Below the pieces are notes generated by a model, which saw nothing but the letters and a program-made list of their open reading frames with translations, was not told where the DNA came from and made no database searches. Position numbers and translations under genes: made by a program. From contig NW_005434569.1 of assembly GCF_000315625.1 (NCBI RefSeq), positions 169,816 through 233,815 on the forward strand: 64,000 nucleotides of DNA, in the 5' to 3' direction. This stretch comes from Guillardia theta CCMP2712 (Eukaryota; Protista; Cryptophyta). Shown piece after piece: positions 3,088 through 45,289 of the stretch. Numbering within the stretch: the stretch's first letter is position 1; the number at the start of each line of letters is the position of its first letter.

Positions 3088-3304
3088 CCTCGACGTGCTC
3101 GCTGAGCTCCTCGTGATCTGGCTCTGCTCTCTCCACCATCTTGAGGATCGGCATTGCGGAGATCTCATCGAGCAGTGCTTCCGCCTCTGCCTCGAGATCC
3201 TCACCGAGCCCTGGCCCAAAGGTGGTGTTGGGATACACGATGCGGATGCCATCGTAGTCGAGGCTCAGGTTGGACGCGTGGTTTATTGCATCGGCAGGAT
3301 GCAT
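3088..3304 (-). CDS. Acidic hypothetical protein whose frame runs into the tandem array (truncated or fused)
   Basis: ATG at 3304 (MHPADAINH...) lies ~25 nt downstream of a minus-strand TATAAAAG. After ...EELSEHVEA the frame continues into repeat-derived sequence to 2738. Confidence 0.6.
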
Positions 3305-3375
3305 TTGTGAGCGTTGCAAAGACAAGGCTTTTATAGGTTAAGATTCTTTATTGCATGTTTAGGGCTCAGTGCAAT

Positions 3376-3690
3376 CTAGAAGACAACGTCCAAGGAGAGG
3401 TTGAGCAAGCGCCCGACGTAGTCGTGCGTCGAGCGCTTGAAGCGCGCCGCGTTGGTCTGCGTGTAGAGCTCGAGGTAGCGCAGCAGCCACATGTTCTCTG
3501 TCGCAATGTCAATGCACCTGCGACGGTCCTCACTGGACAGCCCGGTGACGCCCTCGTAGGTCGTCTTGATGTGACGCTCGAGGTTCTCAACAAACTGTGC
3601 AGTCTGTGAGGCAGTGGGGTGCCTGGCATCGATCAGCGTGCGGGCAAGCCTGCGGAGGTTGTTGTGAAAAAGCATGGGCTTAGAGTCCAT
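3376..3690 (-). CDS. Hypothetical protein (104 aa)
   Basis: ATG ORF with virus-like codon usage, TATATAAG ~40 nt upstream and AATAAA just downstream (~3347-3352). Confidence 0.7.
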   Translation of the reverse strand: MDSKPMLFHNNLRRLARTLIDARHPTASQTAQFVENLERHIKTTYEGVTGLSSEDRRRCIDIATENMWLLRYLELYTQTNAARFKRSTHDYVGRLLNLSLDVVF

Positions 3691-3814
3691 GGTCTGGTGG
3701 GTTGGGGGAGAGGGGAGGGGAGGGAGGGCTTATATAGACCCCAAGAGGGGGGGGGTCAGAGGGGGGATGGGGTCGATTACAAGTTTAATGCATCTTGTAT
3801 CAACGGTGTATCGC

Positions 3815-4129
3815 TCAGTGCTTCGTCTTCTTCTGCTTTCCTGGGGATGCGATTCGCATGAGATTCTGGTGGATCGCACGCACGTTTTGCTTATTCTCCC
3901 TGTCGGAGAGCGCGGAGATCAGATTCCTGCACTGCGAATGGCACGAATCGATGAGCTCCTTGGTGTTGGGTGCATGCTGTAGCTTGTCGCTCAACTTCTT
4001 TGCATTCCTCAGGTTCCTTGCCGTGATACCAGCGTTGATCAACTCGTCCTGATCACCATGCCTCGACACAATGTCGAGCTTCCTGGCGATATCTTCCAGT
4101 GTCTGCCTCATATCGATAGGTTCAGACAT
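3815..4129 (-). CDS. Hypothetical basic helical protein (104 aa)
   Basis: ATG ORF with TATTTAATA at ~4161-4169 on the minus strand and a basic C-terminus (KQKKTKH). Confidence 0.7.
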   Translation of the reverse strand: MSEPIDMRQTLEDIARKLDIVSRHGDQDELINAGITARNLRNAKKLSDKLQHAPNTKELIDSCHSQCRNLISALSDRENKQNVRAIHQNLMRIASPGKQKKTKH

Positions 4130-4247
4130 GATTCTGTAGTGCTTGTGTGTTGCTACGCGGTATTAAATACGATGCAGCGCCGAGTGATATAAGGGTGGAA
4201 GAGAACGGCTGGTGTGCGCGTTGGCTCTGACACTGTCTGTTTTGCAG

Positions 4248-6581
4248 ATTGGCACAACCAAGGGCACGGGCGGGGATTGCCTGATCTTGGAGGAGGCAGC
4301 CTACTGCGATTCGACCTTTTTCTATGAGACCGTCGCGCCAATCCTATCGATTGGCAGCACCTCCCTGCTCTGCATCTCCACGCTCACCTCCGAAATCAAT
4401 TTCTACACGAGGCTGATCAAGATGCGCGATCCCGACACTGGCCGCCCGCTCTTTGCCGTCAAGTGCATCGAGCTCGCTTGCCAGCAGTGCAAGGAAGACG
4501 GGAAGAGCCATGAGTGTGTGCACATGCTGCATCTCGTTCCGCAGTGGCAGAGCGGGGAGAGGCACAGGAGGCTGAAGGTGGTGATGCAAGACAGGCCCGA
4601 CCTCATCCAGTCGGAGCTGGCGGGGCTGGCGTTCGATTCTTTGCAGCAGGCGTTCAGGGTGAAGGACATCGAGGCCATGCTGTCGCAGCAGGCGCCCCCG
4701 TTTGTTAGCAACCAGAACATCTACCTGGTGGTGGACCCAGCGACGGGTGGCCCGCAGAGTGACTACGCGGTGGTGAGCATCGTGAGGCACAAGGGGTTGA
4801 TCACGGTAAGTGCAGGGATGTGTGCGTGTTTTATTCTTGCAAACACCAGTGGGATTTCCTTTGCGCGATTCCGCAGGGTTACCAAAGGATGTGTCTGAGG
4901 GTGTACTTTTCAAACACATATATCGTGAATCCGATACAGTGCTTCACAACGAAGGTGACAACCATCCAGGCAGCATCTTGGACCTTGCTCATTGTGCTCT
5001 TGCGCACGGGGATGTTGTTGGCCAGTGCGAGGAGCTTGATGAAATCACCGTACGTCGGATCCTGGACCATGTGCTCAGGCATGTACCTATGCTGTTGTTG
5101 CATGAGGTGCAGGGCATTGATGATGCACACTGGGACCTTGCCGTTTGACGGCATCGTGAAGGTGTTCAGCTCCGAGATAGTCTGGAAAACCTCAGGCTTC
5201 AGGTCAACTCCATGTCGATACATATCGAGATAGAGAAGGATTTCGTCGAGGTCCTTGCAGAGTTCCGAGCACTGGGCATCATCCTCGTGCTTCTTCAGTT
5301 CGAGCACCAACTCTTGCCATGTGCCCTGGTGTTTGATCATCGTTTCCCAGATCATGGTCTTCTCGGGGATGTTGAAGCTGGTGCAGGAAGCGACGATCAA
5401 CAGGACCACCTTAGTGTCGTGAATCAGTGGCTGAAGGTCAGCATTGCAGATACTCTCCCTGTTGTACTCCAGGTGGAGCACAACCTTGCAAATGTCACGT
5501 TCTGCATCGTCAATGGTGCTCGCAAGAAAGGACGTGAAGTCTTTCAGACCCGATATCATGGTTAACTGAATCGGGTCTGCAAGTTTAAATACCAGGCGTT
5601 GCCATGCTCATGAGCATTGATACATCTCCTGGATCTCCTGCTCGAAGGTGATGGTGGTCTTGAGTTCGTCTCGGAGGAAGTTTGGGATCACAGTGCTGTC
5701 GATCGCCTTGAAAAACACGGGGGCCTTGTATCCGCAGAGGGGTTGGAGGGTGACGTCGGCTTCCTCGATGACGTAGGGCTTTGTGAATGTCTCCTTGAGA
5801 CCCATGTCAACGTTGAGCAGCAAGATCAGCACACACCGCGCCATGTGCTCGTTCCTGCTGGCGATGTCGAGCAATTTGGAGGGGAGCGGGTCTTTCAATA
5901 TGTTGGCAAGCCTCTGTGCAGATTCCCGGCAGAGCTTCATTGTTGTCTTCATGTCGTTGTTGTAGAGGATATGGAAGAGGATGTCTCTCTGTGGCACTGA
6001 CATTCTTGCCGTTGCAGATTGTCGGGATGGACGTCCTCTCCGGATGCAAGGGTGAACGCTTCCTTTTGATGCATTTTTTAACCTCTTGCACTGCAGAGCC
6101 AGACAAGCAGTTCGATCTCCTCGCCGAGCACATGCAGCGCCTGAGGGATTGCAACACGGCCTTTGTGGTATCCGAGATCATTGTCATGGTGGAGCGGAAC
6201 CTTGGGTTCGAGGCGGAGTATCACCAGCGCCATTTCAACGGCATGAAGAATGTGAGATTCAGGGTTGACCACAAGGCCCAGCGCTACGGCGTCCTCACCA
6301 CGCATGAGATCAAGCATGCGATGTGCACGATGCTGAACTCACTGCTGAGGGAGGGGAGGGTGCATCTCTGGGAGAATTTCGTGAGCCGCGATCCGAGGGG
6401 CATGAAGCGTCGGCTTCGCGAGCAGCTGGAGATCTACTCCTACCAGTTCAAGAGCGCGGCCAGTGTGTTCAACAAGGATCAGATGGCGCTCAGTGGAAAG
6501 GTGGGAGGCATGAAGGATGACGTCTGCATCGCACTGCAGCTTGCGTGCTATTACAGCTCGAACCCAGAGTTTTACGCGTAG
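4248..6581 (+). CDS. DNA-packaging terminase large subunit, C-terminal ATPase part plus RNase H-like nuclease; exons 4248-4805, 6018-6051, 6097-6581; 5' exon(s) absent
   Basis: KGTGGDCLILEEAAY (Walker B), LLCIST (coupling motif), CxxC...CxH Zn site, IYLVVDPATGG (nuclease Asp), IVMVERN, and ALSGKVGGMKDDVCIAL like the herpes UL15 C-terminus. Donor ACG|GTAAGT at 4806 and acceptor CTGAC...TTGCAG|ATT at 6017 join in frame. Confidence 0.9.
4879..5559 (-). CDS. Intron-nested hypothetical protein (226 aa)
   Basis: Clean ATG ORF with strong codon bias, TATTTAAA at ~5584-5591 and AATAAA at 4830-4835 (minus strand). Confidence 0.85.
   Translation of the reverse strand: MISGLKDFTSFLASTIDDAERDICKVVLHLEYNRESICNADLQPLIHDTKVVLLIVASCTSFNIPEKTMIWETMIKHQGTWQELVLELKKHEDDAQCSELCKDLDEILLYLDMYRHGVDLKPEVFQTISELNTFTMPSNGKVPVCIINALHLMQQQHRYMPEHMVQDPTYGDFIKLLALANNIPVRKSTMSKVQDAAWMVVTFVVKHCIGFTIYVFEKYTLRHILW
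5608..6003 (-). CDS. Intron-nested hypothetical protein (131 aa)
   Basis: ATG ORF with virus-like codon usage; its first codons overlap the intron branch point. Confidence 0.75.
   Translation of the reverse strand: MSVPQRDILFHILYNNDMKTTMKLCRESAQRLANILKDPLPSKLLDIASRNEHMARCVLILLLNVDMGLKETFTKPYVIEEADVTLQPLCGYKAPVFFKAIDSTVIPNFLRDELKTTITFEQEIQEMYQCS
6052..6096 (+). other. Probable 45-nt in-frame micro-intron in the terminase
   Basis: G|GTGAAC...T-rich...TTTAAC...CTGCAG. The stretch is T-rich inside a GC-rich exon, and removing it gives CKEPDKQF. Confidence 0.6.
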
Positions 6582-6587: not shown

Positions 6588-7552
6588 TCAATTCGAGTTC
6601 AATATACTCCATGCCTTGAAGAATTCCATGCATTGGTGTGCGTCGAAGTGCTCCATGATCGCCTCCAGTATGAATGGTCTCAATATGTCCTGGTTGTTGT
6701 TGCAATTCTCGTAGATGCATTGCAGGAACCCGCCGATGGCATCCCGCAGGTGTATATCGTTCTGGATGCATGCCTTGCAGATCTTGACAAACACCATCGT
6801 CAGTGCGTAGAAGTCCGTGGCCTCCAGGTCGTGGTAGGTGAAGGCATTGGCCCTGCACACGATGGGATAATCCATGGTGTTCTTGGTCATGCAGGATATC
6901 TTGAGCTTGATGGATTCGGGGCAAAGGGTCGGATTGGGCAGGTGGGATATTGTCCCGTCCTTGTTGTAAGCCTTGGGGTGGAGCTTGGGGATGAAAGCAT
7001 TCCCCCAGTCGATGAGATAAGCAGAGCCATCCTCGTTGATGACGATGTTGTGGTTTCGGATGTCGTGTGATAGACCGAGAGGGAGTGCAGGCGGGCCAGT
7101 TGGCGGCAGATCCTCTGGAAGCTCTCTACTAGCTTCTCCCGCATGTGAGGTTGATAGAATGAGATGAAACGCGGTGTCGGCACCCCGAGGTAGGGGAGGA
7201 TGGCGTACATGATTCGGTTGTATTCCTTCTTTAACATCCCAAATCCCGACCAGGTGCCAATGTGGTCCCTCTCTCTGTAGTCAGAGAGTTGATCGAGAAG
7301 GTATCGGTTGATCTGGGTCTCTTCCATGAAGAGCGTTGGGCTTGAAAAGAGCTTGATCACCAAGGCATGCCCCTCCTGCTTGGCAAGGAAGCACTTCCCG
7401 GAGACCCCCTCCCCGAGGTAGAAGAAGCGGATGCCTCTGAGATCCCGCATCTGCCTGCTGTGGCGGACAACCTCGAGCAGTATGGTGTATGTCTTCTTGG
7501 TGTTGTGGAGCTCCGTGTGGCGTATGCGTGGGAGGGGGATGGATTCGGACAT
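6588..7552 (-). pseudogene. Ser/Thr protein kinase with a 1-nt frameshift at ~7066 (pseudogene or sequence error)
   Basis: LGEGVSGKC P-loop and VIK lysine. Adding one base after TAT CAC gives YHxDIRNHNIVINEDGSAYLIDWGNA and joins the 6588-6890 ORF (~321 aa total). Confidence 0.85.
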
Positions 7553-7583: not shown

Positions 7584-10500
7584 TTAAAGGCCCCTCCCCT
7601 GTGGTTGACTAATTCTAATATCTAGTTTTAATCTATGTGTCATTATGACTGTCGCGATGATGAGCTTCAGTACCTCCCTCAGGAGGAATACCGGGAAGCT
7701 CACGAGGAGGCCTATGACGTAGAGGAGGAAGAATATGATGATGTAGATTGGTATGACCCGCCAGATATTCAGCGTGCCGCAAACCAATTGTGCGTTGATC
7801 ATGTCTTCTTGGTATGCATCGATGATGGCTGCCTTGACAGATATGTGCCGGTTGAGCGAGGTGAACTGAACCGCGGCCGGGAATCCAGCGATGGACGCCC
7901 CCAGAGACCTGCAGAGGTCGGTAGAGATGAAGCAAGTCCACCATGCGATCTCGGATTCCCACGTGTTGAATTCAAACGGCGCGTCGCTGCAAGGGATGAT
8001 GCATGCCTCCCTATTGACCACCGCCGGGTCGTTGAGGCACCCCGGTGAGGTCTGCAGGCTGTCGGGGAAGCGGAAGGACGAGGGGAAGAACACGTTGGCA
8101 ATATCCACAAAGTCCTGAATGAAGCACGTCGGGATCATCGGTGCGCAGAAGGGGGAGACACCAAAGGCGTAGTAGCTGGTGATGACTGGGTACGTGCCCC
8201 AGAGGAATGTGCTCACGTAGGGGATCTGGAAGGCAGTGATCACCGCAGTGGTCCCCGCGAGCAGTATCCCTACGACGATGCCGGAGACCAGCAGTGTGTA
8301 CTTGTGCTTGGAGCACAGCATCACGGCCGACCGGTCGCACCGGAGGAAGTCTTGCAGGAATCCAGGCGATGCCATGAGCGCATTGTAGAAGAACTGCCGA
8401 TTGAACGGCGTGTGCTCCAGCGCGGATACGACAGTGAAGACCATCGTCGAGATCCAATCCCCGTTGACGGGCCTCTGCAGCGGTGGCACAGTCTTGGTCT
8501 GCGGCAGGCCGCTTAGGGGCCAGCTGCCTGAAACCACCTTGCGGGGGCTGGCGGCGAGGAGGGAGCCCTGGGTGTAGAAGAGTGTGACGTTGCCAAAGGC
8601 GTTCCTCGTCAGCGTCAGTGTGTTGGACAGCAGCGCACACGACCCGAGGGTCTGCGGGATGTCGTAATTCACGGGCCATGCAAAGGGGCTGTCCACCCAG
8701 GCGTTGCTGGTCGCCGCCCCAACTGGCTCGACGATGCCGTCATTCAGGGAGGTGGAGGCGGTGAACCGCTTCACCTCGCTCCTCTGTGTCTGCCATGAGG
8801 TCTGCAGCAGGTGCCTGCCGATGGATGCGTTGGTGATGTTCTCGAGGAGGTGCATGGCAAAGGGCCCCTCGGCAGCGATGCTGAGGATGTGCTTCATCGC
8901 CAGCTGGTTCTGGATCGCCAGCGGGCCGTCTACCCCCGAGCGGTTGAAGTGGGAGGAGAGGCCGTGGAGGATGTTGAGGAGGAGGAGCGTCGTCTCGCTG
9001 ATGTTGTCACCGTGGATGTACATCCCGCCGTCGATATCTATGCGATAATGAAGGCTGTTGTTCCTCTTCGTGCCGTGGATTGCGATCTCGTAGTAGAGGT
9101 CGTGGAACACCCTCGTCCACACGTGGTAATAGCGGTGCAAGCGCTGGAAGATGCTGGTCTGCATGCCAAGCTCCAGCACGAGGGTGGGATTGTACAGCAG
9201 CAGCAGGAGGGCGGTGGGATCATTCCCTATGGTCTCCATCAGGTCGGTGAGGCTCACGAACATGTTGGGAGGGATGCGATCCTCGATGCCGTGCCGCCTT
9301 GCAACATCGTAGGTTGCAGCGAACCTGGTGATGCAAGAGACAAACACGCGGGTGGTGCGGTTGGAGAGGAGGTATTCGTCGTAGGCGTCCATGCAGGTGG
9401 CGTCGTGGCTGTAGAACTCTGGGGAGTCCAAACCGAGGAGGCGGCGGCCGTAAGGGCCCGAGGCGCCGGCGCCAGACATGCCGCTGATGCCAATGGAGAC
9501 GAGCATCGGTGCAAAGCTGAAGAACGAGCTGAACACGCTGTAGCAATACACCTGGTCGTAGTTGCTGTTGTAGCAAGGTGTGGCGAGGAGGTTGTTGTAG
9601 CTTATCGTGTAGGTTGCGCTGGAGGATGCCGAGAACCCACCCATGGAGGTGGTCACCTGCGCAAGGCAGAGGCCGGAGAGCTTCGGTGCCACCGCCTTGG
9701 TGACATCGCTGTTGGAGCAGCCCTGTGGGTCCACCCGCGTGAGGAAGCAAGAGCAAGAGCCGTAGGTCTTCCCGGGTTGCAGGATGCACATCGGCTGCGT
9801 TGTGCACTGTGCACACGGGATGTTTCCAAAGGTCGGCTGTATGTCGCTGTTCATGAAGACGCAGGTGGCATCGATCTGGTTGACACACTGCTCGTGCGTC
9901 ATGCACGGCGTCTCGTAGGTCTGCATCACGTTGCACATGCACTGTTTCCGTATGGGATCGCACCCGTACCTTGCCACCGTGCTGGTGGATCCGCCGTAGG
10001 GGCATGCGTCGCACACCATCGTGTCCGACCCGCTCGAGGCCGTGGCGCGAAGGCAGGTGTCCGAGGCGGAGCAGGAGAGGCGGGCCCCGTCGCTCACGCT
10101 GGTGATGTAGCTGGCCCAGCAGCGGGTGGGCGTCGGCAGGGTTCCATCTTCCGCCTGCGGTGGGAAGGCATTCCCAATGTCACATTTGAGGACATTCCTG
10201 GCATTGCAATCGATGGACTTGAGCTTGTTCCCGACATCCAGGTATATCTGGTAGACGATCCAGGTGAAGGGCTTGATCCCGATGATGCTGATGTCATGGA
10301 TTGTCTTGAGGGCATTCCCGATGCCCGTACACACGTCACCTACAAAGTGCAGGATGGGGCAGATGACAGGGAAGAAAAAATTGTTCAGGAACCAGTTGAT
10401 GATGGTGCAGATGATCTTGATGATCTTCATGAGCTGATCCCCAAAGGGAGCGGAGCGTATGAGCTCAAACACCATGTTCCCGATCTGCTCAAACAGCACC

Positions 10501-13500
10501 CTTGCCTCGTTGATGAACATGTTGAACCAATGCATCACCTGTGGCATGACCTGATCGGAGTTGATGCCTAGCAGCAGCTGCATGAAGTTGAACCCCATCA
10601 TCCCTGCGTAGAAGACGAGCTTGACAATGGTCTGAACGATCTGCCTCAGATCCCCAAACAGCTTGTAGATAGGGACAAGAAACTCTGCCGCGCACTGCTT
10701 CTTCATGTTGTTGTTCTGTGCGATCACCGCCTGAATCTCCTGTGTGGTGTAGACCGAGGAGCACGCCTCGCTGCTCACCGACTGGTAGAAGTCCAGCACC
10801 GTCTGCGTCACAAAGGCCTGGTTGGATATGCTGTAGGCCGACGGGTTGTAGAGGAAGCGTGATTCAACGCACACCCCCGCGGCCTTGCAGTTGGCAGCCT
10901 GTATCCTCTGCAGGAGGCTTGCGACGTGCGTTGAGAGGTTGTTCATCGTAGAGTCGAGCGTCCATATGCGTATGGGGATCATCGTGCTGGTGGTTGGGGC
11001 CGCGGACATGGCATCGCGGCACGCACCGAAGCGCTGCTTAGGGTCAAGCCAGGTCTCTTTCGGGATGGATCCGTAGCACTTCCTGTTGGAGTAGGGTTTG
11101 GAGTACCGGTCGCTGTCGGAGCAGAAGACCCATTCCCTGTCCCAGAACTTGCTGTCATTCACGGGATTGGGCGGCGCCGGGGTGGAGATGGAGGCGCTGC
11201 TTTGTATCTGGAAGAGCGAGGTGAAATCCTGCAGGTAGGCCTGCAGGAAGCTGTCGACGGTCCACTTGCTCGGGTCGATGGCGTTGTCGAGCAACGGGCA
11301 ATCGATGGAATTGCCACAGATCTGCCTTCGGAGGTCCTGTGCCATCGTGCGGGAGAGGGAGAGCCTCACGGGAACCCCAAAGCTTGTGAATTGTCTCATG
11401 CTGCTGGATACGGGGTTCCTGGCGTTGTCGGTTCTGTCGACGTAGGATCTGAGCTGTGGCGAGGGCTGGCACTCCTGGAATGTCCTCCTATGGTTGGCCT
11501 GGAATTGCGTGACAAAGTCCGTTGGGGATGGAACGTCGAGGGCGTGCAAGGAAGTGCTCGTCACTGGCTTCCCCGCGATGAGGGCTGTGGTGCTGCACTC
11601 GAGGTGTGAGAAGTTGTACCGGTGGCATCTCCCCCCGATGGGAACGGTGCTTGGGACGCGGACGAGGCGCCCTGTGTGGCATTCCCCTCCCGCGTCCAGG
11701 GTGGTGATGCCGGCATCCGCCGTGATGCTCACAGGGAGATACCTGAGCTGGAACTCCCTGAGACGATCGTGGACGGGGCAGTCTGTGTTCTGTGCCGCAC
11801 TCCCTAGGTCGGTGCCGTCGCGGAGGACGCCCTTGGTGTTGGGCCAGTCAAGGCTCCGCTTGCATCCCTGCGTTCCCGCGTAGCTCTGCTTGGTCTTCCA
11901 TTGGTTCCCCGTGAGGAGATCGACCGTCTGGTACAGCCCACAGCTGCTCGCCGTGTCGGTGGTGAGGAAGGAGCAGTCCGACTTCGAGGAGCAGCTGCAG
12001 ATCTCGCTCACGAAGAATGGGTCTGCGAGGTCTGGGATCGTGGTTCCAAAGGGCTGCATGGGGTTGGACATCCCGTTCCCTACCGTGCCGCCCATCTGGT
12101 TGGTCTCCGAGAACATCGTCGCTGCACGGGGCCCGTAGGGTGCCTTGGGGCGGAAGGACTGCGACGATCCTCCCCAGTAGTGCATCTCCCTCACAGGGCA
12201 GTCCCAGGATACCGCCCCGTTCTGCGATGCGCTGCCAAGCTCGGCCGCATTCAGATCGTAATCCGAGCGGGAATCGATGGCGTAGGTCTTAAGCCAATCG
12301 AGGTTGTTGGATGCGCATGGGTCGATCCCTGGGGTGCTCGGGGAGGTATCCGCATTGGTTGCATAGGCAAGGGGCAGGCATTTCGGCAGCAGGTTGTGCG
12401 TGACGCCGTCGGGCAGCGGGGCGAGGTCGGCGACGAGGAGCGACCCCCCGATGTCCATCTGCGACTGCTTCAGGATGCCAAACTGTGGCGAGCGGGCCTG
12501 GAATGCAGGGTTTGGATTCGAGCCAAAGATGCCCGAGTAAGGCATGGAGGTGGCCGGGCGTGTATAGAGATCCTCCATCGTCGTCCCGGACCCGCCGCCA
12601 AAGCTTCCCTGCTCGTGCAGGCAGGTTGTGTTGACGCGAATCCCGCGGTTGCAGAGATTGTTGCCTGCAGTGCTCAGGATGTCGATGCGGGATGGGGGCT
12701 GGTTGTTCTTTGTGATGCACTGGGCATAGACCAGGGAGTTGTACTCCGTGCAGGCGGAGATCCCGGTCTTGCAACCCCCGCTGATGACGGTGCTGAACTC
12801 ATTGGGGAGCACCACCGTGTCGCAGGCATCCCTGATGTTGAAGCCCCCGCCCAGCCATGGGTTGAGCGAGAGCACGTAGCCGTCGAAGGTCCTGTAGCAA
12901 ACGGCCTCGGATTGCAGCGTCTCCTCGCAGCGCATATCGCTCAGCACCCAATCGAGGTATTGATCTCGCGACGGCCTCGCAGCCTTGGCCCAGTGCAGGC
13001 TGTGCATCGAGGTCACCTGTGCAGCCGTGAGCTTGGTTAGCACGGATTGCTCGAGGTCAGCGACGCTTGCAGACTTCCGCTTGTACTGCGCAAGGCACGA
13101 CTTGAGGCTCTCCCTGTGTGACGCCGGTGTGCATTCGGTGGTCTTGACAATCTGGTTGATGCACTTGTCGAGGGGTTGGAGACGCATGGTCTCGGCCTGT
13201 GCCCTGTAGCTGTTCAGCTCGTAGAGGTTCAGCGTTGTGTCGGGATACTTGCTGTTGGTGTCCATGAATGAAAGGCTGAGGAAATCCGGCGTTATCCACA
13301 GCTGGTTGTACAGGTCGGAAGGGAGAAGGCCGTTGCCAGACGTGATCTGCCTTGACACAAGAAAGTGCATGAGCCGGAATGCATCCTTCTGTGTATACCC
13401 ATTGGCCGCTGAGCTCTGCCCTGTGAGGCCGATGTAGTTCCTGTCAGAGCTTGTGAAGCCAAGAACGGATTCGTCGATCCTCCTGTAGCGGTACAGGTGT

Positions 13501-16500
13501 TTTCCGATATACTTGAGCAACGGCACGCGGGCGCAGTCACTCTTGCAGATCCAGAGGTTGTTCATGATCTCTGCCAATACGCTCTGATTCACCGACCTCA
13601 GCGGGCACTTGGAGAGCGCGTCCGTCGCGCTGCTGGCACAGAAGATCTCCGTTGCATTCTGCAGATGCAGGGCAATGGCATGCACGAGGCTGTTGTCGCG
13701 GGCAACATTGCAGACCTTGCCAGGGCAGGGGCTCACCGATCCCAGGCTCGTAGAGCAAGAATCGGTGCTGCAGCGTGTAGAGACCCCAGTGGGTCTTGCC
13801 CCGTACCGGCTCCAGATGGCCTCGTTGGAGAGGACGGCGAAGTTGGGCTGCTGCCCCGTCCCGGCATACCATGAGTTCAGCGTGCTCTGCACCGAACCCA
13901 CCGTCTCCGCATCCCAGCCCGTCCATGACAGCAGGTGGCTCTTGTTCACCCCCGTGACATTGAAGCAGTCGACCCAGGCAGGGTACCATCTCGTGCTCGT
14001 CCTGGGGTATTCCACAGAGTAGAACTCGTCCGCATTGGGATCGCGGCTCCCCGCCGTCCCGTCGCGATAGAACACGTAGATGTCAACACCCCTGACGGAC
14101 TGCACAAGGTCGACGGGGGTAGAGAACCCGCCGAGCGACTGGCTGTCTCGCAGGCAGGTGGAGTCGGTGCGCAAGCAGATGTCGCCAGCTGGGTTGGTGA
14201 CGTCGAGATCAATGGTTGTGAACTGCACCGAGGCCAGCGATGGGTTGACGGCGCTTTGTATGTCCCGCACAAAGAGGAACTGCTTGCAATGCGTCTGCAT
14301 TGAGATGTTATTCCCACCATTCACCCCTGGGGCGTTGAGGTACGTGTTGGTGCACCTGTCATCCTGCGAAGCATGAAGCAAATCGCAGGACTGCCCCGTG
14401 CGTTGGTCGTAGGATGGGGTTGGATTGCAGACATTGATGGAACGGCAGTTCTGCGCAGAGTCACACAGTCGCACCTCGGGATCCTGATCCAGGTTCTTGG
14501 TGATCCCAGGCTCGTAACCGGGGAAGTTGCTGTACAGGCATGCGGTGGTTTGCAGCGTGTTGTCCCGTATGAGGCTCTGATACCTTCGGAACAGTGCACC
14601 GTTGTATTGCACGTCTCCGTAGGTAAAATCCTCCAGCGGCTCATCTTCACGCAGCACGGAGGACAGGATCGAGTCGAGCTCCGAGTCTAGGAATCGCCGG
14701 AAGATATTCGGGAAGTTGTACTGCAGGATGCCGCTGGTGGCATCGAAGTACTGCTTGTCTCGCGAGAGGAAGTCTGTCGCGAAATCCGCCCTCTGGAATG
14801 CCAGGTTTGCCCTCGCCGTGCGGTTCACCCCCGAGTTGGCAGCGGCGTATCCCAGGTTGATGTCACCGCTGAGGATGAAGTGCAGGACCTGGGTGAGCAG
14901 CGCTGGGATTCCGTCGTCGGCTGGGAGCCCGCCGTCGTCCTGATAGACAGGGTCCGTGTTGGTGATCTTGGTGCTGTCCGAGATGACATCGCTCGAGGTG
15001 GTGTATTGGTTGTACGCCCAATCGTGGTTGTAACGGCTCTGGAGCTTGCGCAGCTGCACGTAAGTCAGGTTGATGTACTCAGGGTGCGAGGAATAGCCCA
15101 TCGCTGCCGTGACGTCGGCCTGCGCCTGCAGCAGCTTCGAGTACAGCGTGTCGTAGATGCTGAGGGCAATCTGGTCTTGGTTCACCACCGCCCGCCTCGA
15201 TGATTGCAGGTACAGCGCATTGGCCATCATCAGGAATTGCCTCACCGTCGACGGTTGATAGCCCGCGGTGTGTGAGTTCTTCCAGCCCGCACAGGGCACT
15301 TGATCGATGTTGCCGGCGATCATGCCGTCGATGTTCACGTCGCCGTCTAGAATGACGCACTGCGCCCACCACTTCATCGGGATCTCCATCTGTGAGGCGT
15401 CATCATAAAAGTACAGCGTCATGTAGGGGTAGAAGTAGGTGGGTACCCCGGGCTCGAACTCGTATGCATACCACTGTGTTGCCTCGTTGGTTGATTCGGA
15501 CTGCGCGTAGAGCGACATCGTATTGTACACATTCGCGATGCACACTGCCTGCTGCTGGTACTCCTCCCAGGTGTTGAAACCTCGCTTGAAACCACGGAGC
15601 AGGATATCATTCAACGCGCTTGCCACCTTGTTCCGGTCTGCCAATGCATAGCTGTATTTGTAGTAGCGGCAGAGGGTGCCTACTGCCTGCTCGTTGATGT
15701 ACGAAGGATTGAACTGACAGGAGGCCTTGAGGACGTCGTAGTCCTCGCATAGCATGCGCGCGATGGGGTTTGTCAATGGGTCCATACGGCATGGGACCCC
15801 ATCCGTCAGGGTTGTGGAGGAGGTTGACAGATCCACAAGATATCCGGCACTGCCGCAATACAGTGCGTCCTGCAGGGTGTAGGCATCCCTCCTCGTCCCA
15901 AGATTCTGCAGGTTGAGCCTGTTGATCAATCTGCCCTGCATCTTGTATCCCATGACATAGAAGTCCTGCAAGAAGCAGATCTGCAGTTCGGAGCACATGG
16001 AGAGGGAGAGGGATATGTTCCCAAAGGAGTCCTCACGGTTGTACCCCTGGTAAGGGGCCAGGAATCCCGTCCTCTTCCTCTCCAGGCTGCCGAGCTTGCA
16101 GAGCTGCAGGGACCACTTGTTGTCACCCGACGAGACCCAGGTCCTGGTAGTCTCCCCCTGTGCCTCCACCGGCAAGGGGATCCCAAGGCTGTCAACAGTA
16201 GTGGATGGATTGCCGACACAGGATGGGAACTGGAACTGGTAGTCCATATCGCAGGTGTGAGGCTCCATCTGCAGGATCCCGCGGTCGAACATGTCGAGCC
16301 GTATCTGCGCGTCGGTGAGGTATGGGTCTGTGCTGGGCCATTGGATGTCATCGGGGATATTTGCCAGCGTCGCTGTTGCAGCACCCGCAACCCCGGAGCG
16401 GGCGATCAGCTGCTCGTACTCGAACCAGGAGCGGAAGCCGCAGAGCCCGTGCCGGGAGAGGAAGTCCTGCGAGTTCTGCCAGGGTGAATGACCGAGGGTC

Positions 16501-30599: not shown

Positions 30600-31523
30600 T
30601 TGCAAAAGGCTGTGCAAATGGGCCAGTTAAACTACGAATGGCACACATTCGGCTTCGAGATCCTCATGCAGGTCAACCCGAGAGAGTTCAACCTAGAGGG
30701 GAAGCGCATGATCCTCAGACACAACGCGAAGCACGTGTTCCAGCGCGAGATACAGTCGGGGAAGTGCATGATGAACCTCCTCCGTGAGCTCGAGAACGAG
30801 GGGAAGCAGAAGGGAAACAAGCACATATGCGGGTTCCGGTGGGTGGCAGAGAGGACCAAGATCGAGGAGGATTTCACGGTCAAGTCTTTTGTCGAGGACA
30901 ACCTCGCCAGGCTCCTTCTCAACATGTCCAGGGTGATCCAGGAACAGGTGGAGACCCACATCCTTGCACACCCCAGGCTTCATCCCACGAACACAGACAT
31001 CGAGATGCTCGATGCCCCAAGGCCGCAAGAACTCCCTATCGTGAAGGGTAATACCTCCGCAACACACTGGCCGCTGATACTGCATTCCTCCCCTGATCGG
31101 AACATCGATGGTGGCCAGGAGTGGATGCAGTTCCTCCGCATGTGCCAGGAGATTGCCAGCACCCTCGGGGTCAGCCACCAGGAGGCTGTCTACCACAATT
31201 GCATCAAGATCGAGATGACAAGGCATCAAATCCCTCATATCTCACACTATCACTGCATGCAGAAGATGCCGGGTGGGAACCTCACCAAGATTGGTGAATG
31301 CGATCTGTTCGTCGAGCTCCGGTCGGGGGCGTTCCTCGTAGAACTCAAGGTGTGCGCAAGCTGGAGGAGATTCGAGAACCAGGTCAAGAAGTACATCAAC
31401 GCATGCTACTCCGTCAATCAGAGGCTGCAGGGGGCTGCCATACTGAATTTCCACCCCAAGGGTTACATCGAGTGCATCATGTTCGATGTAAACTGCAGGC
31501 ACACCCCCTCCGGGTCGTCCTGA
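30600..31523 (+). CDS. Protein with C-terminal GxxExxY-type PD-(D/E)XK nuclease domain (start uncertain; first ATG 30618)
   Basis: LGVSHQEAVYHNC...CDLFV...LVELK...QVKKY...GAAILNF. Confidence 0.8.
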   Translation: MQKAVQMGQLNYEWHTFGFEILMQVNPREFNLEGKRMILRHNAKHVFQREIQSGKCMMNLLRELENEGKQKGNKHICGFRWVAERTKIEEDFTVKSFVEDNLARLLLNMSRVIQEQVETHILAHPRLHPTNTDIEMLDAPRPQELPIVKGNTSATHWPLILHSSPDRNIDGGQEWMQFLRMCQEIASTLGVSHQEAVYHNCIKIEMTRHQIPHISHYHCMQKMPGGNLTKIGECDLFVELRSGAFLVELKVCASWRRFENQVKKYINACYSVNQRLQGAAILNFHPKGYIECIMFDVNCRHTPSGSS

Positions 31524-32744: not shown

Positions 32745-33950
32745 CTACGAGATAGGCATGATGTCATGCTTGCAGAGCGAGGGGAAGTGAGCCTTGCATT
32801 TAGCCACAGTGGGTTCGAGCTTGTCGTACGCCATGGAGAGCTGCACAGACTCGAAATGGCGCTCTCCAGCGTCTGGGTCCAGGAGGCGTGGGAGGTAGTC
32901 GAGGATGGGTGTGTACTCCTCGTTGCATGGGATGAGAGCAAACGCTGGGATCTTGTAGTCCCTCTCTTGTTCTCGCGCGAGCCTGTGCTCCTCTGCCAAT
33001 GCCTCGAGGCGGTTCTCCTTGGGCCAGGAAAAGAACGGCTTCTTGCCGGTGATGATCTCCATGATGACACATCCGATGCTCCATGGGATCTCGTTGGAGT
33101 TGTCAGACTCGATGCCTGCAATTTGATCCTCAGCAGCCGCCGGATCGATGTAATCCAGATCGTTGTGTTCACAGGAGGGGAGGAGGTCGTGGAGCTTGAA
33201 CTCCAGCGGGACGAGGCCGTTGTACCTTCCCCAGACCTGCACGACAAACATCTTCGGCAGGTAATACGTGGAGTACTTGGGGAAGCCGCTCTCGGCTCGC
33301 TCCAAGATGGAGTGCACCGCATCCCAGAATGCGTAGGCGTGCATCCAGAGGAAGTCAAACTGGTCCTCGTGCCACTTGCCATTGTCGAGGAGCTGCTTGA
33401 AGTTGAAGCCATCCTCAAACTCCGAGCACAGATGCACGCAGAGCGGGCTGATAGCCCAGCTGTGCAGCGTTGGGATCGCAGGGCTGATCGCAGTCTCAAA
33501 CGCCTTGAGCTCGATCTTGCGCACCCTCTCGTACTGCAGGTCGTAATCCTTCTTGTACGACCGGATGACAAACACGCGCGTCTCCGGCATCTCCTGGCGC
33601 TCCTTCTCCATCTCGTCGTCCGTGTCGTCACGAATGAGATACCGGAAGATGGCACAGGCGGTGTAGTTGTGCGACGTCTTGATCTTCCCCGCAGCACGCT
33701 CCTCCTTGCTGATCGGGAGCCAGCGCTCGGTGTCGAAGCCGTTCCTCTCGTTCTTGCGCAGGCGAACGACACGGATCGTGCTGCGAGCATCGTCGTGCAC
33801 GAGCTGCGGGGTTTCCAGCGGCATGCTATCCTGATCGAACTCAAAGGGCAGCAGGCCGGAGTAGCACTCCTTGTAGAGCTCGAGCTCGGCATCCGTGAGC
33901 TGAGCACCCCTGTCCTTGACGAGGGGTTCGATGTAGGAGAATGGGAGCAT
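32745..33950 (-). CDS. Divergent protein kinase-like protein (probable pseudokinase)
   Basis: YIDP...WSIGCVIMEIITGKKPFF and RLLDPDAGER match subdomains VIII-XI; no recognisable HRD or DFG. Confidence 0.7.
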   Translation of the reverse strand: MLPFSYIEPLVKDRGAQLTDAELELYKECYSGLLPFEFDQDSMPLETPQLVHDDARSTIRVVRLRKNERNGFDTERWLPISKEERAAGKIKTSHNYTACAIFRYLIRDDTDDEMEKERQEMPETRVFVIRSYKKDYDLQYERVRKIELKAFETAISPAIPTLHSWAISPLCVHLCSEFEDGFNFKQLLDNGKWHEDQFDFLWMHAYAFWDAVHSILERAESGFPKYSTYYLPKMFVVQVWGRYNGLVPLEFKLHDLLPSCEHNDLDYIDPAAAEDQIAGIESDNSNEIPWSIGCVIMEIITGKKPFFSWPKENRLEALAEEHRLAREQERDYKIPAFALIPCNEEYTPILDYLPRLLDPDAGERHFESVQLSMAYDKLEPTVAKCKAHFPSLCKHDIMPIS

Positions 33951-35546: not shown

Positions 35547-36922
35547 ATGCAGGAGGATGAGAGCACCTTCGCCCTCCGCTGCCCCGACACGATGCAGCTC
35601 AACCTCCGCAACCACTTGCACAGGCTCAGGCCCTGGGCTATGCCAGCCTTCCTAGATGTCAACTCGACCAAGAATTACTTCAAAGTGGCTGCGGCAGAAT
35701 GGGACGAGTTCCTCGCTGTCATGCAGCGCACGGCAATCGACGGGGCGCTGTTCCGCAAGTGCATCAAGGGATGGATCACGCAGCAATCCACACCTGGGAG
35801 ATTCATCTGTGTGGTCTGTGGCAGGCCCTCCATCGTCGACCTCTCCGCGATGCAGGTTGAAACAGAGGGGAACGGATGCGGGGTCTGCATCTGCTGCATC
35901 AACATGGGTGGCCTTACCCCGCCGGGCTTCACCGACCACGCTGTGAATAACATGTTCTTCATCCAGGCGCAGAAGGAGCTTGCCGCTCTGTATCCCAACA
36001 TGAACATATCGCTGCAGATCGACTCACAGGTGCAGGGTGCGGAGGTGGGCCACCTCTCCCGGCCTGACGCGACGCTGTTCTTCGAGTACAACTCACAGGC
36101 CACCGTGGTCTACGTCGAGTGCGACCCCGGCATGAAGCAGATCCGGCAGCAGGCCATCCGTGACAAGGATCTCCTCAAAATCCAGCAGCTCTACAAGCCC
36201 ACCACGACCACCACCCTGACGGTCATGATCCGGTACGATCCAAAGATCGACAGCAGGATCAATCACAGCAGCAACCTGTTCCGCTCTCTCTGGGAGATCA
36301 TCCACAGCATTGCAGACACCGCGTTCAACGGGCACAACTCATCGGTCGTTCGGAAGACCGGCCGCGTGTTCCTCAACTATGACTTTGGCACCTTCAATAA
36401 GTTCGGTTACCGCATGCAGGGCCTGGATGACTGCTTGTCGAATATCCTCTCACCTCTGCAACAGAACGGATACGCAGAGGCTGTCTGCAACCCCATACCG
36501 CAGTATGACGTAAAAGATATCGACCCCTGCAGCAACATCGATTTCTACAAGCACAAGCAGGTCTGGCTGCAGGTTGCCACCGACGTGCACATGAATCCGT
36601 TCTTCATCGCCTTTGCAGGATCCAACATGAGGATCGGGAGGGTGAATGGGAATTCCACACCGCCTGCAATTCACCCAATGCCACAGTGCCCGTGCGATAC
36701 CTGCACGGATTCAACTCTCTGCAGAACACCGTGCAGCTCGACCCTTTCACCATCCGGATGGGAAAAGGGCTGCTGGTGCAGGCACTCCTCGTCCAGAGGC
36801 ACGGCATACTGTCGACATACGACGCAAGGCACCTGCTCCCCACCCGCGCCAACGGGCCCAGGAAGAGGGGGGCAAGATCGAAGAGAGTCAGGAACGTTGA
36901 TGATGAAGAAGACGACGTTTAA
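35547..36922 (+). CDS. Zn-finger plus restriction-like (PD-(D/E)XK) endonuclease; probable frameshift near 36655
   Basis: CVVC...CGVCICC and RPD...VYVECD. After ~36655 the codon bias moves to the frame reading PNATVPVRYLHG...DDEEDDV*, which ends just before the convergent gene. Confidence 0.55.
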
Positions 36923-38279: not shown

Positions 38280-38753
38280 ATGCTCATCAGCGGCATCGCC
38301 AACCCTGCCGGGGAGACCGAGGGATACAACGGGCTGCACCTCAAGGACGGGGAGATCGACGAGATCATCAGCGGCAGGCAGATGATCGGCATCCCCGTCA
38401 AGATCGAGCACAAGGGCGTCGGTGTCGGCACCGTGGTCTCGGCATTCAAGGATGAACAGGGCAGGCTGAACTGCATACTGGACATCACCGACGATGAGAT
38501 CGAGGGCGCGATCGCACAGCAGTGGGTGCGGGACAACACGGCCAGCGAGCTCTCGCTGGGTTACACCGTCGACATCAACCAGTCCGAGCCGCAGGGCAGG
38601 CTCTCCGCGGGGAGGAAGAAGGTGCTCGAGGTCAGCCTCGTCAGGAAGGGTGCGAGGAAGGGCTGCCACATCTACAGCCACCCAGGGAAGCACCCGCCTG
38701 GCGACCCCGGGTTGATCAAAGACTGGCGCGAGGCTTTCGGCCACCCCTTCTGA
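38280..38753 (+). CDS. Capsid maturation (prohead) protease, assemblin/HK97 type
   Basis: IPVKIEH..VGVGTV (catalytic His), ELSLGY (catalytic Ser) and EVSLVRKGARKGC (cf. herpes HVALC..GRR). Confidence 0.88.
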   Translation: MLISGIANPAGETEGYNGLHLKDGEIDEIISGRQMIGIPVKIEHKGVGVGTVVSAFKDEQGRLNCILDITDDEIEGAIAQQWVRDNTASELSLGYTVDINQSEPQGRLSAGRKKVLEVSLVRKGARKGCHIYSHPGKHPPGDPGLIKDWREAFGHPF

Positions 38754-42610: not shown

Positions 42611-42741
42611 GTGTCACAGTGTGTGTTTTGTTATATGCTCTGCGAGTAGAGGATCCAGAACCATGCTTCGAATAATTTTTAGTCAACCCCTCCCCTCCCT
42701 GGGGTTATAAATTTCAAGGCCCCCCACCCCAATCCCCATCC

Positions 42742-43812
42742 ATGAACCCCACGGTCCAAAGGACCCACACTCCCCTCTTCAATTTCTGGAAGAGGAACAA
42801 GACCTTCCAGAAGAGCTTTGCAAACATCGTGAAATTCAAGGATGACGAGATCAACATGTCCGACTCCTCGGTGGTGCTCTACCACTTTCACCAGCAGTTG
42901 CTCACCTCCACCATCGATTTCCGCCTGCAGCCGGGGGAGAGCGAGGAAGAGCGATGCGAGCGCGTGAAGCTGGCTGTCAAGCAACTGACAAGATTCACGC
43001 ATCGGTTCTTTGCATTCGTCAATTCGCTGTACCTCCTGTACGATCCCAGCACACCGGTGCTGCGTTACAGCAAGAAGATCGACAAATTGCTGCAAACCAA
43101 ACTGCAAGTGGCGCGGCAGGCAGAGGAGATGCTGCATCTCACCGATGACATGCACCGCATGGATCTAAGGGACTGCTACCACAATTGCAACGGTAGCGTG
43201 AGGTACCATGCGATGAACGTGGATTACATGCGCAAACTGCTCAACATGGTGAAATTCCCAAACCTATCGCTGTTCTTCATCTATGGGTTGCCAAACATGG
43301 TCCACCCTCTCTACGACCAGCTCAGCTACAACAGCTACACCTTGCGGTTTCAGCCACAGGGTGTGATACCCGATATCGTCACGGCACAGAACATCCTCGT
43401 CAACATGCAGGAGCTGGTCTGTTCGATGACCGATTACAGCTCCTATTACAGCAACCTCGCGCGCTTCATCGAATTGCGCGATCGGTTGTTCGAGGACGCC
43501 AGACAAAGCAAGGTCATTGCCAAGATCGAGCAGATGATCAGATCTACGGTGAGTCCCGCAGGGTTCGGCCCTGGAACCTTCCGCTTCATCATTGTGCTCC
43601 CCATCTTCCCAAAGATTGTGCAGAACATCAACATGATGGGGTTCCCCAACCGCGGAACCAAGGCAGAAATCCACGCGCTCTTCCGAGAGCGTCGCAGGCT
43701 GTACAGGAAGTGGAAGATCCCCTTTGAGATCCAGGTGATGCTGCATCGGAACATCGAGCGGGGATTCCCCATTGTCTACCAGAAGGTTTATTCTCTCTCT
43801 GTAGCGAAATAA
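42742..43812 (+). CDS. Hypothetical protein (356 aa)
   Basis: TATAAA at ~42706; AATAAA overlaps the stop. Confidence 0.85.
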   Translation: MNPTVQRTHTPLFNFWKRNKTFQKSFANIVKFKDDEINMSDSSVVLYHFHQQLLTSTIDFRLQPGESEEERCERVKLAVKQLTRFTHRFFAFVNSLYLLYDPSTPVLRYSKKIDKLLQTKLQVARQAEEMLHLTDDMHRMDLRDCYHNCNGSVRYHAMNVDYMRKLLNMVKFPNLSLFFIYGLPNMVHPLYDQLSYNSYTLRFQPQGVIPDIVTAQNILVNMQELVCSMTDYSSYYSNLARFIELRDRLFEDARQSKVIAKIEQMIRSTVSPAGFGPGTFRFIIVLPIFPKIVQNINMMGFPNRGTKAEIHALFRERRRLYRKWKIPFEIQVMLHRNIERGFPIVYQKVYSLSVAK

Positions 43813-43824
43813 AGAAGGAAACCC

Positions 43825-44021
43825 TCAAAAGCTCTGGCAACAAGCCCCCGCGTGATCGCAGCAGAAGAAGGATGCATTGAGGCAATCGCCAATGCACATC
43901 GGTGTCGTGCAGTTGTAGTAGAGGCAGCACACCTTCTCTAGGCAGGAGGGCTCGATGTACCTTGTCCTGTGAATTTCATTATAGGAGGAATCCGATTGAT
44001 AGCCGTCACGGTAGTCATCCA
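43825..44021 (-). CDS. Small protein with Cys-rich C-terminal tail (CYSTM-like)
   Basis: MDDYRDG...CLEKVCCLYYNC...CC...CCQSF, followed by AATAAA. Confidence 0.5.
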
Positions 44022-44116
44022 TACGCAACTGATTCTGCGGGTAGCGCAAAACCACCATCCATAGGCAACGCAGTTCTGCACAACTTTAATAACCCCCCTG
44101 ATCTGTCTCGGATGGC

Positions 44117-45289
44117 ATGCCACGGTATAAAGAGCGGGGCGAGATAAACACGGGAGGCATGGATGCGGCAGAGTTGGACGTTGACATCCACGAGCGCATC
44201 AACCGAGCATTCGAGCTCTACCCGCTGAGCCGCGATGAGCTCGACACATGCCGCGCGCTGCTGAAACCGAGCCGTCACACATCCATCATGGTGATGCCCA
44301 CACACAGGATCAACGAGGTCGGCGAGTTCCAGGGATTCCGCTTCAACGCCGGATCGCAGATCAATGCCGACATCCTCCCAATATCGCGGAAGATGTTCTT
44401 CGGCATCACCATGACCGAATGCCTCAGCAGCCAGAGGGAGGATACACGCGGAGTCAACAGCAAGGCTATCGACCTGCTGAACAACCTCGATGCATGCAAA
44501 CAAAAGATGCAAAACATCCTGCAGAATATTCAGAAGGCATCGCTGCACGAGAAGGCGAGCTTCCAGTGCATGCCAGTGAACGCATACGGCATGCACGAGG
44601 AGGGGGATGCCTACCTCTCCGACTACCGCCGCTACACCGACTCCAAGTTCTGGAATCCAGAGCCCCCCGAGTTCATCGGAATATACCATGGTTTCACGCG
44701 TGGATTTATCAACGATATACGCGAGCACAAGCTCTACATCGCCTGCTCTGGAGGGCTGAACTACGCTTCGCACGACTTCTACAACATGATCCTCGACATG
44801 GGAGACCAGGTGACGACGGCAAAGCTCTGCGAGAGCGAGGAGGTGCACTGGCTTAGGAAGGCATCGCAACGCGCGAGGTGCAAGATCATCAAGATGGTGG
44901 CAGACGAGTTCGGCTTGGATATCCCCATCGAGCTCGACACGCACGAGTTCTCAACCAACGGGTGCTACATCGCCACCCCCACAACGGAGACCATCTATCA
45001 CGACATCCAGAAGACAAGCTCGGATGTCATCTCTGTGTACAACCATGCATGCAACACCGAGCTCAGCGACAACGGCATCCTCTGCCCGATGCACCCCTCC
45101 GAGGGCATATGGCTCGTCCAGTCCAAGATCATCATGGGCTTTCCCAATCTCCTCGTGACCTACGGTGCCGTGGGGGAGGGCTCCGAGGGTCTCAGCCGCT
45201 GCCCGATCCAGCAGGGCATCGGTGCCTTTGTCGGTCTGAAGCACCACTGCAAGATCGACAGCGAGTGTGCATGGAAAACAGTTTTTTGA
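44117..45289 (+). CDS. Hypothetical protein, possibly degenerate RtcB-like; C-terminus crosses the composition boundary
   Basis: Long ORF, likely starting at the ATG near 44159 after TATAAAGAG. The last codons lie in AT-rich DNA. Confidence 0.7.
   Translation: MPRYKERGEINTGGMDAAELDVDIHERINRAFELYPLSRDELDTCRALLKPSRHTSIMVMPTHRINEVGEFQGFRFNAGSQINADILPISRKMFFGITMTECLSSQREDTRGVNSKAIDLLNNLDACKQKMQNILQNIQKASLHEKASFQCMPVNAYGMHEEGDAYLSDYRRYTDSKFWNPEPPEFIGIYHGFTRGFINDIREHKLYIACSGGLNYASHDFYNMILDMGDQVTTAKLCESEEVHWLRKASQRARCKIIKMVADEFGLDIPIELDTHEFSTNGCYIATPTTETIYHDIQKTSSDVISVYNHACNTELSDNGILCPMHPSEGIWLVQSKIIMGFPNLLVTYGAVGEGSEGLSRCPIQQGIGAFVGLKHHCKIDSECAWKTVF

Follow-up and report, generated by a model that had tools for sequence, protein, structure and literature searches.

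A 42-kb mirusvirus fragment, likely captured recently in repeat-rich cryptophyte DNA

How did a compact block of virus-like genes come to lie between a tandem repeat array and RING-finger genes in cryptophyte DNA, and could it still make virus? We consider it probable that the block is a 42-kb mirusvirus fragment, likely Styxvirales- or Okeanovirales-like, which was likely captured recently in repeat-rich DNA of a cryptophyte and is likely unable to make virus alone. Mirusvirus DNA has been reported from cryptophyte genomes before (clade E03), which limits the surprise.

Extent and surroundings of the viral block

The block occupies positions 3088 to ~45270 (~42 kb) of the window, by which we mean the whole 64-kb stretch of DNA analysed. 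On the left it begins where a 337-bp tandem array stops at 3087. On the right, a Markov change-point, with training data from outside the tested stretch, placed the edge at 45274, within 10 nt of the 45266 given by the first-pass annotation, which had also set the left boundary at 3087. The block is as compact as that annotation described, with a coding share of 95% compared to 51% in the right flank, which is gene-poor eukaryotic-type DNA. GC3 is 0.51-0.90 in 24 block ORFs and 0.38-0.49 in eight of ten flank ORFs. The eukaryotic expression signals reported earlier were also noted by eye, as apparent TATA-like and AATAAA-like words around many block genes.

Both edges fall within genes. At the left junction the array breaks a viral-type reading frame in mid-unit. 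At the right, the profile match of the last gene stops at position 312 of 443, a truncation call based on relatives of only 27-29% identity. No repeat pair joins the two ends, and the block showed neither an integrase nor terminal repeats nor a target duplication.

Each unit of the left array contains two TCACGTGA palindromes. No Rfam match was found anywhere in the window, and the 24-nt pattern of the array is absent from viral contigs. By 4-mer make-up it resembles the block more than the flank (+33 per kb), the array being simply GC-rich. It may be a host satellite or a viral repeat. In the right flank, a 45-bp doublet at 45276 lies beside the edge, and GT-AG introns of 77, 55 and 48 nt yield a single open RING-finger gene. 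This is the only flank gene in which introns were modelled, the remaining long ORFs being single open frames. The earlier description of neighbouring DNA with short GT-AG introns thus holds for this gene but not for the left side, where the neighbour is the array rather than intron-bearing genes. Nor is the right flank clean host DNA, as its ORFs mostly lack introns, it carries RING genes and it includes a block-like patch at 57.5-58.8 kb. RING is a mirusvirus core function (PMC12768974). Block and flank proteins alike are recorded in NCBI and EukProt on a contig of 259,815 nt. In a small set of exact-match look-ups, eight proteins each were asked for from flank and block; of the three flank proteins found, two have MMETSP transcriptome records, compared to none of the five block proteins found.

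Features of the window, with positions, strand and basis
Feature	Positions	Strand	Basis or remark
337-bp tandem array, 9.2 copies, 98% matches	1..3087		units 330-337 nt; extends beyond the window's left edge
Viral-type ORF, frame entering the array after ~72 codons (left junction)	3088..3304	-	ORF reading
104-aa ORF, 93% identical to a protein of an 84.6-kb Guillardia theta scaffold	3376..3690	-	sequence comparison
Terminase C-terminal half, exon 1, starting at a splice acceptor just 5' of the Walker B motif	4248..4805	+	likely trans-splice acceptor
GT-AG intron, 1,212 nt, within the nuclease region and with two antisense genes inside	4806..6017	+	splice model
226-aa intron-nested ORF, two clear relatives (46-48%), outside known families	4879..5559	-	sequence comparison
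131-aa intron-nested ORF, MING-1 candidate	5608..6003	-	likeness to the ORF nested in L081
Terminase nuclease exons 6018-6051 and 6097-6581	6018..6581	+	45-nt GT-AG intron 6052-6096; same place in L081
Kinase-like gene, frameshift near 7065	6588..7552	-	weak Pfam match only (APH, E 0.016)
6,401-aa Cys-rich protein, hydrophobic segments at both ends	7584..26789	-	open throughout
Two tandem GT8-type glycosyltransferase genes, 39% mutual identity	26925..28852	+	family match
PD-(D/E)XK nuclease-domain gene	30618..31523	+	E 5.4e-9
Kinase-like ORF	32745..33950	-	weak, E 0.0047
Six genes in common with environmental contig L001	34017..42595		four of six in the same order and orientation
Unnamed viral gene, frameshift between 36476 and 36662; end approximate	35547..36920	+	frame change at this point in the L001 relative
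Capsid maturation protease (assemblin / HK97 prohead protease fold)	38280..38753	+	structure-model matches
Conserved mirusvirus gene without a name, likely truncated at the right junction	44117..45273	+	relatives in 10 of 80 protease loci
Coiled-coil and C3HC4 RING frame without start; first flank feature	45273..45734	+	E 2.7e-9
RING-finger gene, introns 51048-51124, 51172-51226, 51296-51343	49671..51857	+	hand-built splice model

Marker genes and their relatives

The terminase named by the first-pass annotation is present, but only as its C-terminal, Walker-B-plus-nuclease half, encoded by three exons that join into 358 codons with no internal stop. A close relative (P0153) shares 65% and 52% identity with the two long exons, and its model matched herpesvirus pUL15/UL89 best (E 3.7e-8), with phage terminases next. 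The Walker A (ATPase) half is absent from the 64-kb window, in which only ~1.1 kb of viral DNA lies upstream of exon 1. The same acceptor-type Gln precedes the IGTTK-like motif in 20 of the 53 longer terminase relatives, and in three of these 53 the Walker A half is joined directly at that point. Judged from sequence, the ATPase and nuclease halves are likely encoded apart, in a trans-splicing layout. Alternatively, truncation may have removed the upstream part of a long cis intron.

The site of the 1,212-nt intron is common to L081 and L082, each with an antisense ORF inside, and to 27-28 of the 53 relatives. The shorter nested ORF resembles the one inside the corresponding L081 intron (E 0.002, z 4.7, 1 of 1000 shuffles) and shows no similarity to that of L082. 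With three profiles of the relatives' read-through tails, the 131-aa ORF region came out top for one (E 0.022), second for another (E 1.1) and unranked for the third; in pairwise comparison with the tails, the intron scored no higher than 10 control stretches did. For this ORF and for the gene at the right junction, the ESM Atlas yielded no usable match. A search of solved-structure sequences with that gene, the terminase and the protease also returned nothing.

The protease is a stand-alone protein of 157 aa. Its model matched herpesvirus assemblins in the PDB (best E 1.2e-5) and phage prohead proteases in BFVD (16-22% identity), in line with the assemblin-type protease proposed earlier. In Pfam it matched alloherpesvirus ORF28 alone, weakly and below the cut-off (E 0.0049). 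The first-pass annotation had asked whether the markers cluster with bacteriophages; neither the terminase nor the protease matched any of 50,697 phage records at E 0.1. The herpes-type folds of both markers, with no phage match, uphold the Mirusviricota origin.

The protease has 165 relatives, of which the 120 listed share 43-68% identity with it (self excluded). In a tree with long branches, no outgroup and no published reference genomes, all five named cryptophyte copies, from Guillardia and Hanusia, fell on the window protease's side of a 100/99 branch (21 of 61 rows). The protease phylogeny called for earlier thus supports a cryptophyte host better than the first-pass annotation had. Two named Guillardia-labelled proteases are 67% identical to that of the window, so that Guillardia-labelled and window sequences include three distinct protease types. 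The earlier suggestion of a cryptophyte-like host stands on these sequence relatives but not on the intron style from which it was drawn: the viral terminase has its own 45-nt intron, which rules out short introns as a marker of host DNA.

The 6,401-aa protein has no internal repeat and no family match, and three full-length environmental relatives were found. As in the first-pass annotation, no capsid, portal or polymerase gene was recognised: Pfam, PHROGs and NCBIfam gave no match to HK97-type capsid, portal, triplex or polymerase among the scanned window ORFs, with profiles that are not mirusvirus-specific (the terminase itself also escapes Pfam) and with most block ORFs unnamed. DNA polymerase, RNA polymerase and nucleotide synthesis genes were likewise not found in the 42 kb, about one sixth of the 265-kb mean genome of Styxvirales / Okeanovirales. 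Polymerase absence is normal for both orders (PMC12768974), and we dropped the idea that a missing PolB marks a gap. Protein and DNA scans of viral contigs gave no match.

State of the copy and its origin

The block has the traits of an endogenous element: a composition step, intron-bearing and transcribed flank genes, and two frameshifts in ~40 kb of coding DNA. Under assumed disabling fractions, these frameshifts suggest a divergence of roughly 0.0004-0.0006 changes per site. Of the earlier reading as an integrated or latent virus, integration is likely, with linkage as assembled. Latency is not supported: the copy looks non-functional, with genes truncated at either end, frameshifts in two genes and no ATPase half in the window. 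On these grounds, and because no repeat pair links its ends, it is not an intact provirus. The intact 19-kb ORF had been taken as a sign of recent or functional integration. Recency stands, but we dropped function, because at the block's disruption rate such an ORF would be intact 38% of the time by chance and its survival is no sign of selection.

The same figure weakens the proposal that the insert is domesticated, with selection in the host maintaining the giant membrane protein and the glycosyltransferases. Both GT8 genes are also intact, with both frameshifts elsewhere, but capsid genes are just as intact and transcriptome records exist for none of the five block proteins, making domestication very improbable. 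The joins and both frameshifts could be assembly errors, and free or episomal mirusvirus DNA in the algal culture might have been merged with host repeats. Episomal mirusviruses have been published for protist cultures (PMC10827195), the block is nearly intact, and repeats, typical assembler misjoin sites, abut both edges (the 337-bp array and the 45-bp doublet). Such a chimera is unlikely, however, since the junctions lie inside genes rather than at long shared repeats, two frameshifts are present, and the three protease types together with the 93% relative of another gene fit several inserts better than one episome.

We regard it as quite unlikely that a larger, possibly complete provirus extends leftward, of which the block would be one arm and the array an internal or terminal repeat. 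Tandem terminal repeats occur in some herpesviruses, the array is as GC-rich as the block and holds TATA-like and paired palindromic motifs, and the window covers only 64 kb of a 260-kb contig. Against this, the array interrupts a frame in mid-unit, its unit is unmatched in 80 mirusvirus loci and in viral contigs, and the right end is cut regardless. A bacteriophage or a contaminating bacterium as the source of the markers is scarcely credible. The best BFVD matches of the protease are phage proteins and two terminase relatives sit in contigs filed under bacterial MAGs, but those contigs look mis-binned and, like the block, have spliceosomal GT-AG introns in the terminase. These introns, the protease tree, in which the nearest named relatives are cryptophytes, and the lack of any phage sequence match contradict a phage source.

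For the preferred reading, a captured fragment, the absence of integrase, terminal repeat and target duplication leads us to infer that, while the virus replicated its DNA in the host nucleus, non-homologous repair joined some of this DNA to a broken chromosome, or that rearrangement trimmed it later. In a live virus, host RNA polymerase and spliceosome would express the block genes (from PMC12768974). Trans-splicing would join the terminase half to an ATPase half from another locus, and capsid maturation would fall to the protease. Together with the glycosyltransferases next to it, the 6,401-aa protein would likely form a sugar-coated membrane surface protein. We also put forward, as tentative and unlikely, that the cultured cryptophyte carries a recently integrated polymerase-less nuclear mirusvirus elsewhere, in pieces or whole, with the 337-bp array as a viral repeat. 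If so, the culture would be the first in which terminase trans-splicing, the MING-1 intron and an undescribed family of ~6,000-aa membrane proteins could be studied in the laboratory, and it might be possible to induce the virus.

Comparison with known mirusviruses and herpesviruses

Herpesvirus pUL15/UL89 and assemblin are the best solved-structure matches of the two marker models, and the pUL15/UL89 gene is also split near Walker B. Identity to the block markers is however only 12-18%, and the block protease, at 157 aa and with a likely algal host, lacks the scaffold part of herpesvirus assemblin.

Clade E03 comprises mirusvirus genes on cryptophyte scaffolds, including Guillardia theta, read as giant endogenous viral elements (Zhao et al., PMC10827195). 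It is defined by the capsid protein, of which none was recognised in the window. The parts of that survey drawn on here leave junctions and terminase splicing undescribed. Because the survey dropped proteins >4,000 aa, the 6,401-aa gene was beyond its reach; a conserved viral membrane protein of ~6,000 aa, kept out by this size filter, is now recorded.

With Styxvirales and Okeanovirales the block shares a terminase split near Walker B, likely in a trans-splicing layout, and short spliceosomal introns (Medvedeva et al., PMC12768974); its gene-carrying intron in the nuclease region may correspond to their MING-1 intron, which occupies a fixed nuclease site. The block differs in having two antisense genes in the intron and putatively eukaryotic repeats as flanks. 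Those orders are environmental genomes with no named host, cryptophytes are unmentioned in the main text of that study, and the sole chromosomal integrant it lists belongs to Soporavirales. Lake Biwa mirusvirus subclade 3 lies inside E03, with Cryptophyceae as proposed hosts, and consists of free-virus MAGs (Zhang et al., PMC11465185). Of the MAGs from the same study, four have since been assigned to Styxvirales.

Those mirusvirus orders that depend on the nucleus and are most abundant are known from metagenomes, their host unnamed. A segment with their terminase layout in a cryptophyte assembly unites two published hints, E03 and Lake Biwa subclade 3. It would link nucleus-dependent viruses, mostly known from water samples, to an algal host, and makes cryptophyte cultures candidate places for isolating such viruses and testing trans-splicing.

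The viral block and the state of its copy

The window fell into three parts: a tandem array, a coding-dense block and a sparser right flank. The block (3088 to approximately 45270) was 95% coding, with GC3 of 0.51-0.90 across 24 ORFs, while in the right flank 51% was coding and 8 of 10 ORFs had a GC3 of 0.38-0.49. The viral segment described in the first-pass annotation is real and mostly as described, and its coordinates hold because the array ends at 3087 and a Markov change-point model, trained on data from outside the tested stretch, placed the right edge at 45274. Three block ORFs of lower GC3 had flank-like 4-mer scores and are perhaps later gains of the virus.

Features of the window (positions counted within the window)
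Feature	Position (strand)	Details
Tandem array, 337-bp unit	1-3087	9.2 copies, 98% matches
Terminase exons	4248-4805, 6018-6051, 6097-6581	358 codons, open
Kinase-like gene	6588-7552 (-)	
6,401-aa protein	7584-26789 (-)	
GT8 gene pair	26925-28852 (+)	
35547 gene	35547-36920 (+)	
Capsid protease ORF	38280-38753	165 relatives among 205 candidates
Lower-GC3 ORFs	39474-41287	three ORFs, GC3 0.51-0.64
44117 gene	44117-45273 (+)	
Intronless 337-aa ORF	45981-46994	
63-bp tandem array	47086-47667	8.8 copies, 99%; open throughout as a 193-codon frame
Unit between inverted arrays	49050-54479	5.4 kb
Glycosyltransferase-like ORF	54804-55661	intronless; weak GT25 match
Patch within 73-bp direct repeat	57086-58906	repeat 99%; two ORFs, GC3 0.66 and 0.72
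Glycosyltransferase-like ORF	60623-61888	intronless

Six genes of the stretch 34017-42595 were also found on the environmental contig L001, four of them with order and orientation kept, and 10 of the 80 protease loci contained a relative of the 44117 gene. Judged from its genes, the block is one virus. The 6,401-aa protein had three full-length relatives (5,916-6,249 aa, 21-28% identity over most of the length) and a fourth, represented by its start only, near the protease of contig L004. It matched nothing in Pfam. The protein and its relatives contain approximately 3% cysteine and hydrophobic segments near both termini; this topology, together with the two adjacent GT8 genes, suggests a glycosylated surface protein.

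At the left junction as assembled, an ORF is broken by the array in mid-unit. Similarity of the 44117 gene stops about 130 profile positions short of its relatives' end, and the assembled sequence contains frame changes in the kinase-like and 35547 genes. Two disruptions in approximately 40 kb indicate very little decay, and at that rate 19 kb would stay open with a 38% chance. The integration had been proposed to be recent or functional: its recency is supported, but function is not, given the interrupted ORF, the apparently shortened 44117 gene and the frame changes, and the intact 19-kb ORF is no sign of selection. The copy looks recent and defective. No repeat pair linking the two block ends was found; the viral DNA may have been captured in the nucleus through break repair.

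Capsid protease and split terminase

In 40 aligned protease rows, His44 was invariant and Ser92 nearly so, both presumably catalytic by comparison with herpesvirus assemblin. The predicted structure (pLDDT 88.5) matched herpesvirus proteases in PDB and phage prohead proteases in BFVD, so the fold alone cannot tell a eukaryotic virus from a phage. By contrast, the sequence had zero matches among 50,697 phage records and on this comparison does set the protease apart from phage. Upstream of the L001 protease lies a 1-kb AT-rich, partly palindromic spacer (L001:3393-4369) of origin-like appearance, with no counterpart at the matching window position. Three distinct mirusvirus proteases (P0006, P0011, P0064) carry the label Hanusia phi; assuming that these records come from a transcriptome, mirusvirus late genes would be transcribed in that culture.

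HSV pUL15 and HCMV UL89 outranked phage terminases as matches to the folded terminase, a contiguous relative (P0153) standing in for the window's own protein. A pyrimidine-rich acceptor directly precedes the first terminase exon, and the Walker A half had no match within the 64-kb window. The same first-exon boundary was present in 20 of 53 longer relatives, three of the 53 having the Walker A half joined there. Medvedeva et al. (PMC12768974) describe such a layout as trans-splicing and report it for most mirusviruses, Demutovirales and Soporavirales excepted. Upstream of the first exon the viral DNA extends for only 1.1 kb, so this exon may instead follow a long cis intron that was truncated.

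The 1,212-nt terminase intron (4806-6017) contains two antisense ORFs of 131 aa (5608-6003) and 226 aa (4879-5559). A script counted a break at its site in 28 of 53 relatives, wrongly including P0165, which reads straight through. Two contigs, L081 and L082, have an intron at the same site with an antisense ORF within and a short intron just downstream. The 131-aa ORF resembled the nested ORF of L081 (E 0.002; 1 of 1000 shuffles equally high) and not that of L082; for the 226-aa ORF, which resembled neither, a search of 1.84 billion representatives yielded two clear relatives. By analogy, the intron fits the published description of MING-1 and is a candidate for that class. The start of the 131-aa gene is 14 nt away from the terminase acceptor, and its promoter must therefore extend over the following exon and the 45-nt intron, which are read from the other strand (6003-6096). 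The contigs with the intron-rich mirusvirus terminases L081:4926-8803 and L082:10001-12404 have been assigned to bacterial MAGs, a placement that looks like mis-binning. Another terminase intron of L081 contains one more antisense ORF, of 372 aa, and the L082 terminase adjoins an ORF that by eye is ribonucleotide reductase small-subunit-like.

The right flank

The first flank feature was a RING frame without a start, and one flank gene required three introns (77, 55 and 48 nt). Among the proteins found by look-up, two of three from the flank had MMETSP transcriptome records, versus none of five from the block. Both glycosyltransferase-like ORFs, an assignment we presume for 60623-61888, have exact transcriptome records. 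The 337-aa ORF gave no family match in scans; its N-terminus resembles DNA-binding domains of a kind that large DNA viruses often encode. The 63-bp array adjoins a DnaJ-domain ORF. The unit whose two ends are arrays of a 47-bp repeat in inverted orientation (complementarity up to 100%) holds this three-intron gene, a RING gene, together with a 477-aa ORF, and looks like a foldback-type mobile element with gene cargo. The repeat-flanked patch has block-like GC3, and one of its ORFs is weakly similar to the ORF that the array breaks at the left junction (pairwise E 5e-4); it is possibly a second small viral scrap. Because intronless ORFs and repeats fill much of the flank and RING genes are also listed as a mirusvirus core function in passages of PMC12768974, some of this DNA may be older viral debris.

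Host and published relatives

An unrooted protease tree with long branches was built from 61 of the first 128 relative records. One branch, supported at 100/99 and holding 21 rows, united the window's protease with two proteins of Guillardia theta and three of Hanusia phi. A second block protein shared 93% identity with one from G. theta. These two results back the initial guess of a cryptophyte-like host. Block and flank proteins are recorded on a 259,815-nt contig (NCBI, EukProt). On this sequence evidence, the host is likely a cryptophyte of the Guillardia/Hanusia group.

A literature search covering few subscription papers gave no account of a cryptophyte-embedded segment with this split terminase layout, nor of the 6,401-aa protein, and supplements may list the locus. 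Mirusviruses were never mentioned in the cryptophyte genome papers searched, and the preprint passages searched did not extend the host link. Passages of Medvedeva et al. (PMC12768974) list one chromosomal integrant, in Soporavirales. Cryptophyte hosts are proposed for related lake viruses in passages of Zhang et al. (PMC11465185), and those of Zhao et al. (PMC10827195) place 18 capsid genes of clade E03 in three cryptophyte assemblies. Mirusvirus DNA in cryptophyte assemblies is already known from clade E03, and this segment is a further case of such DNA.
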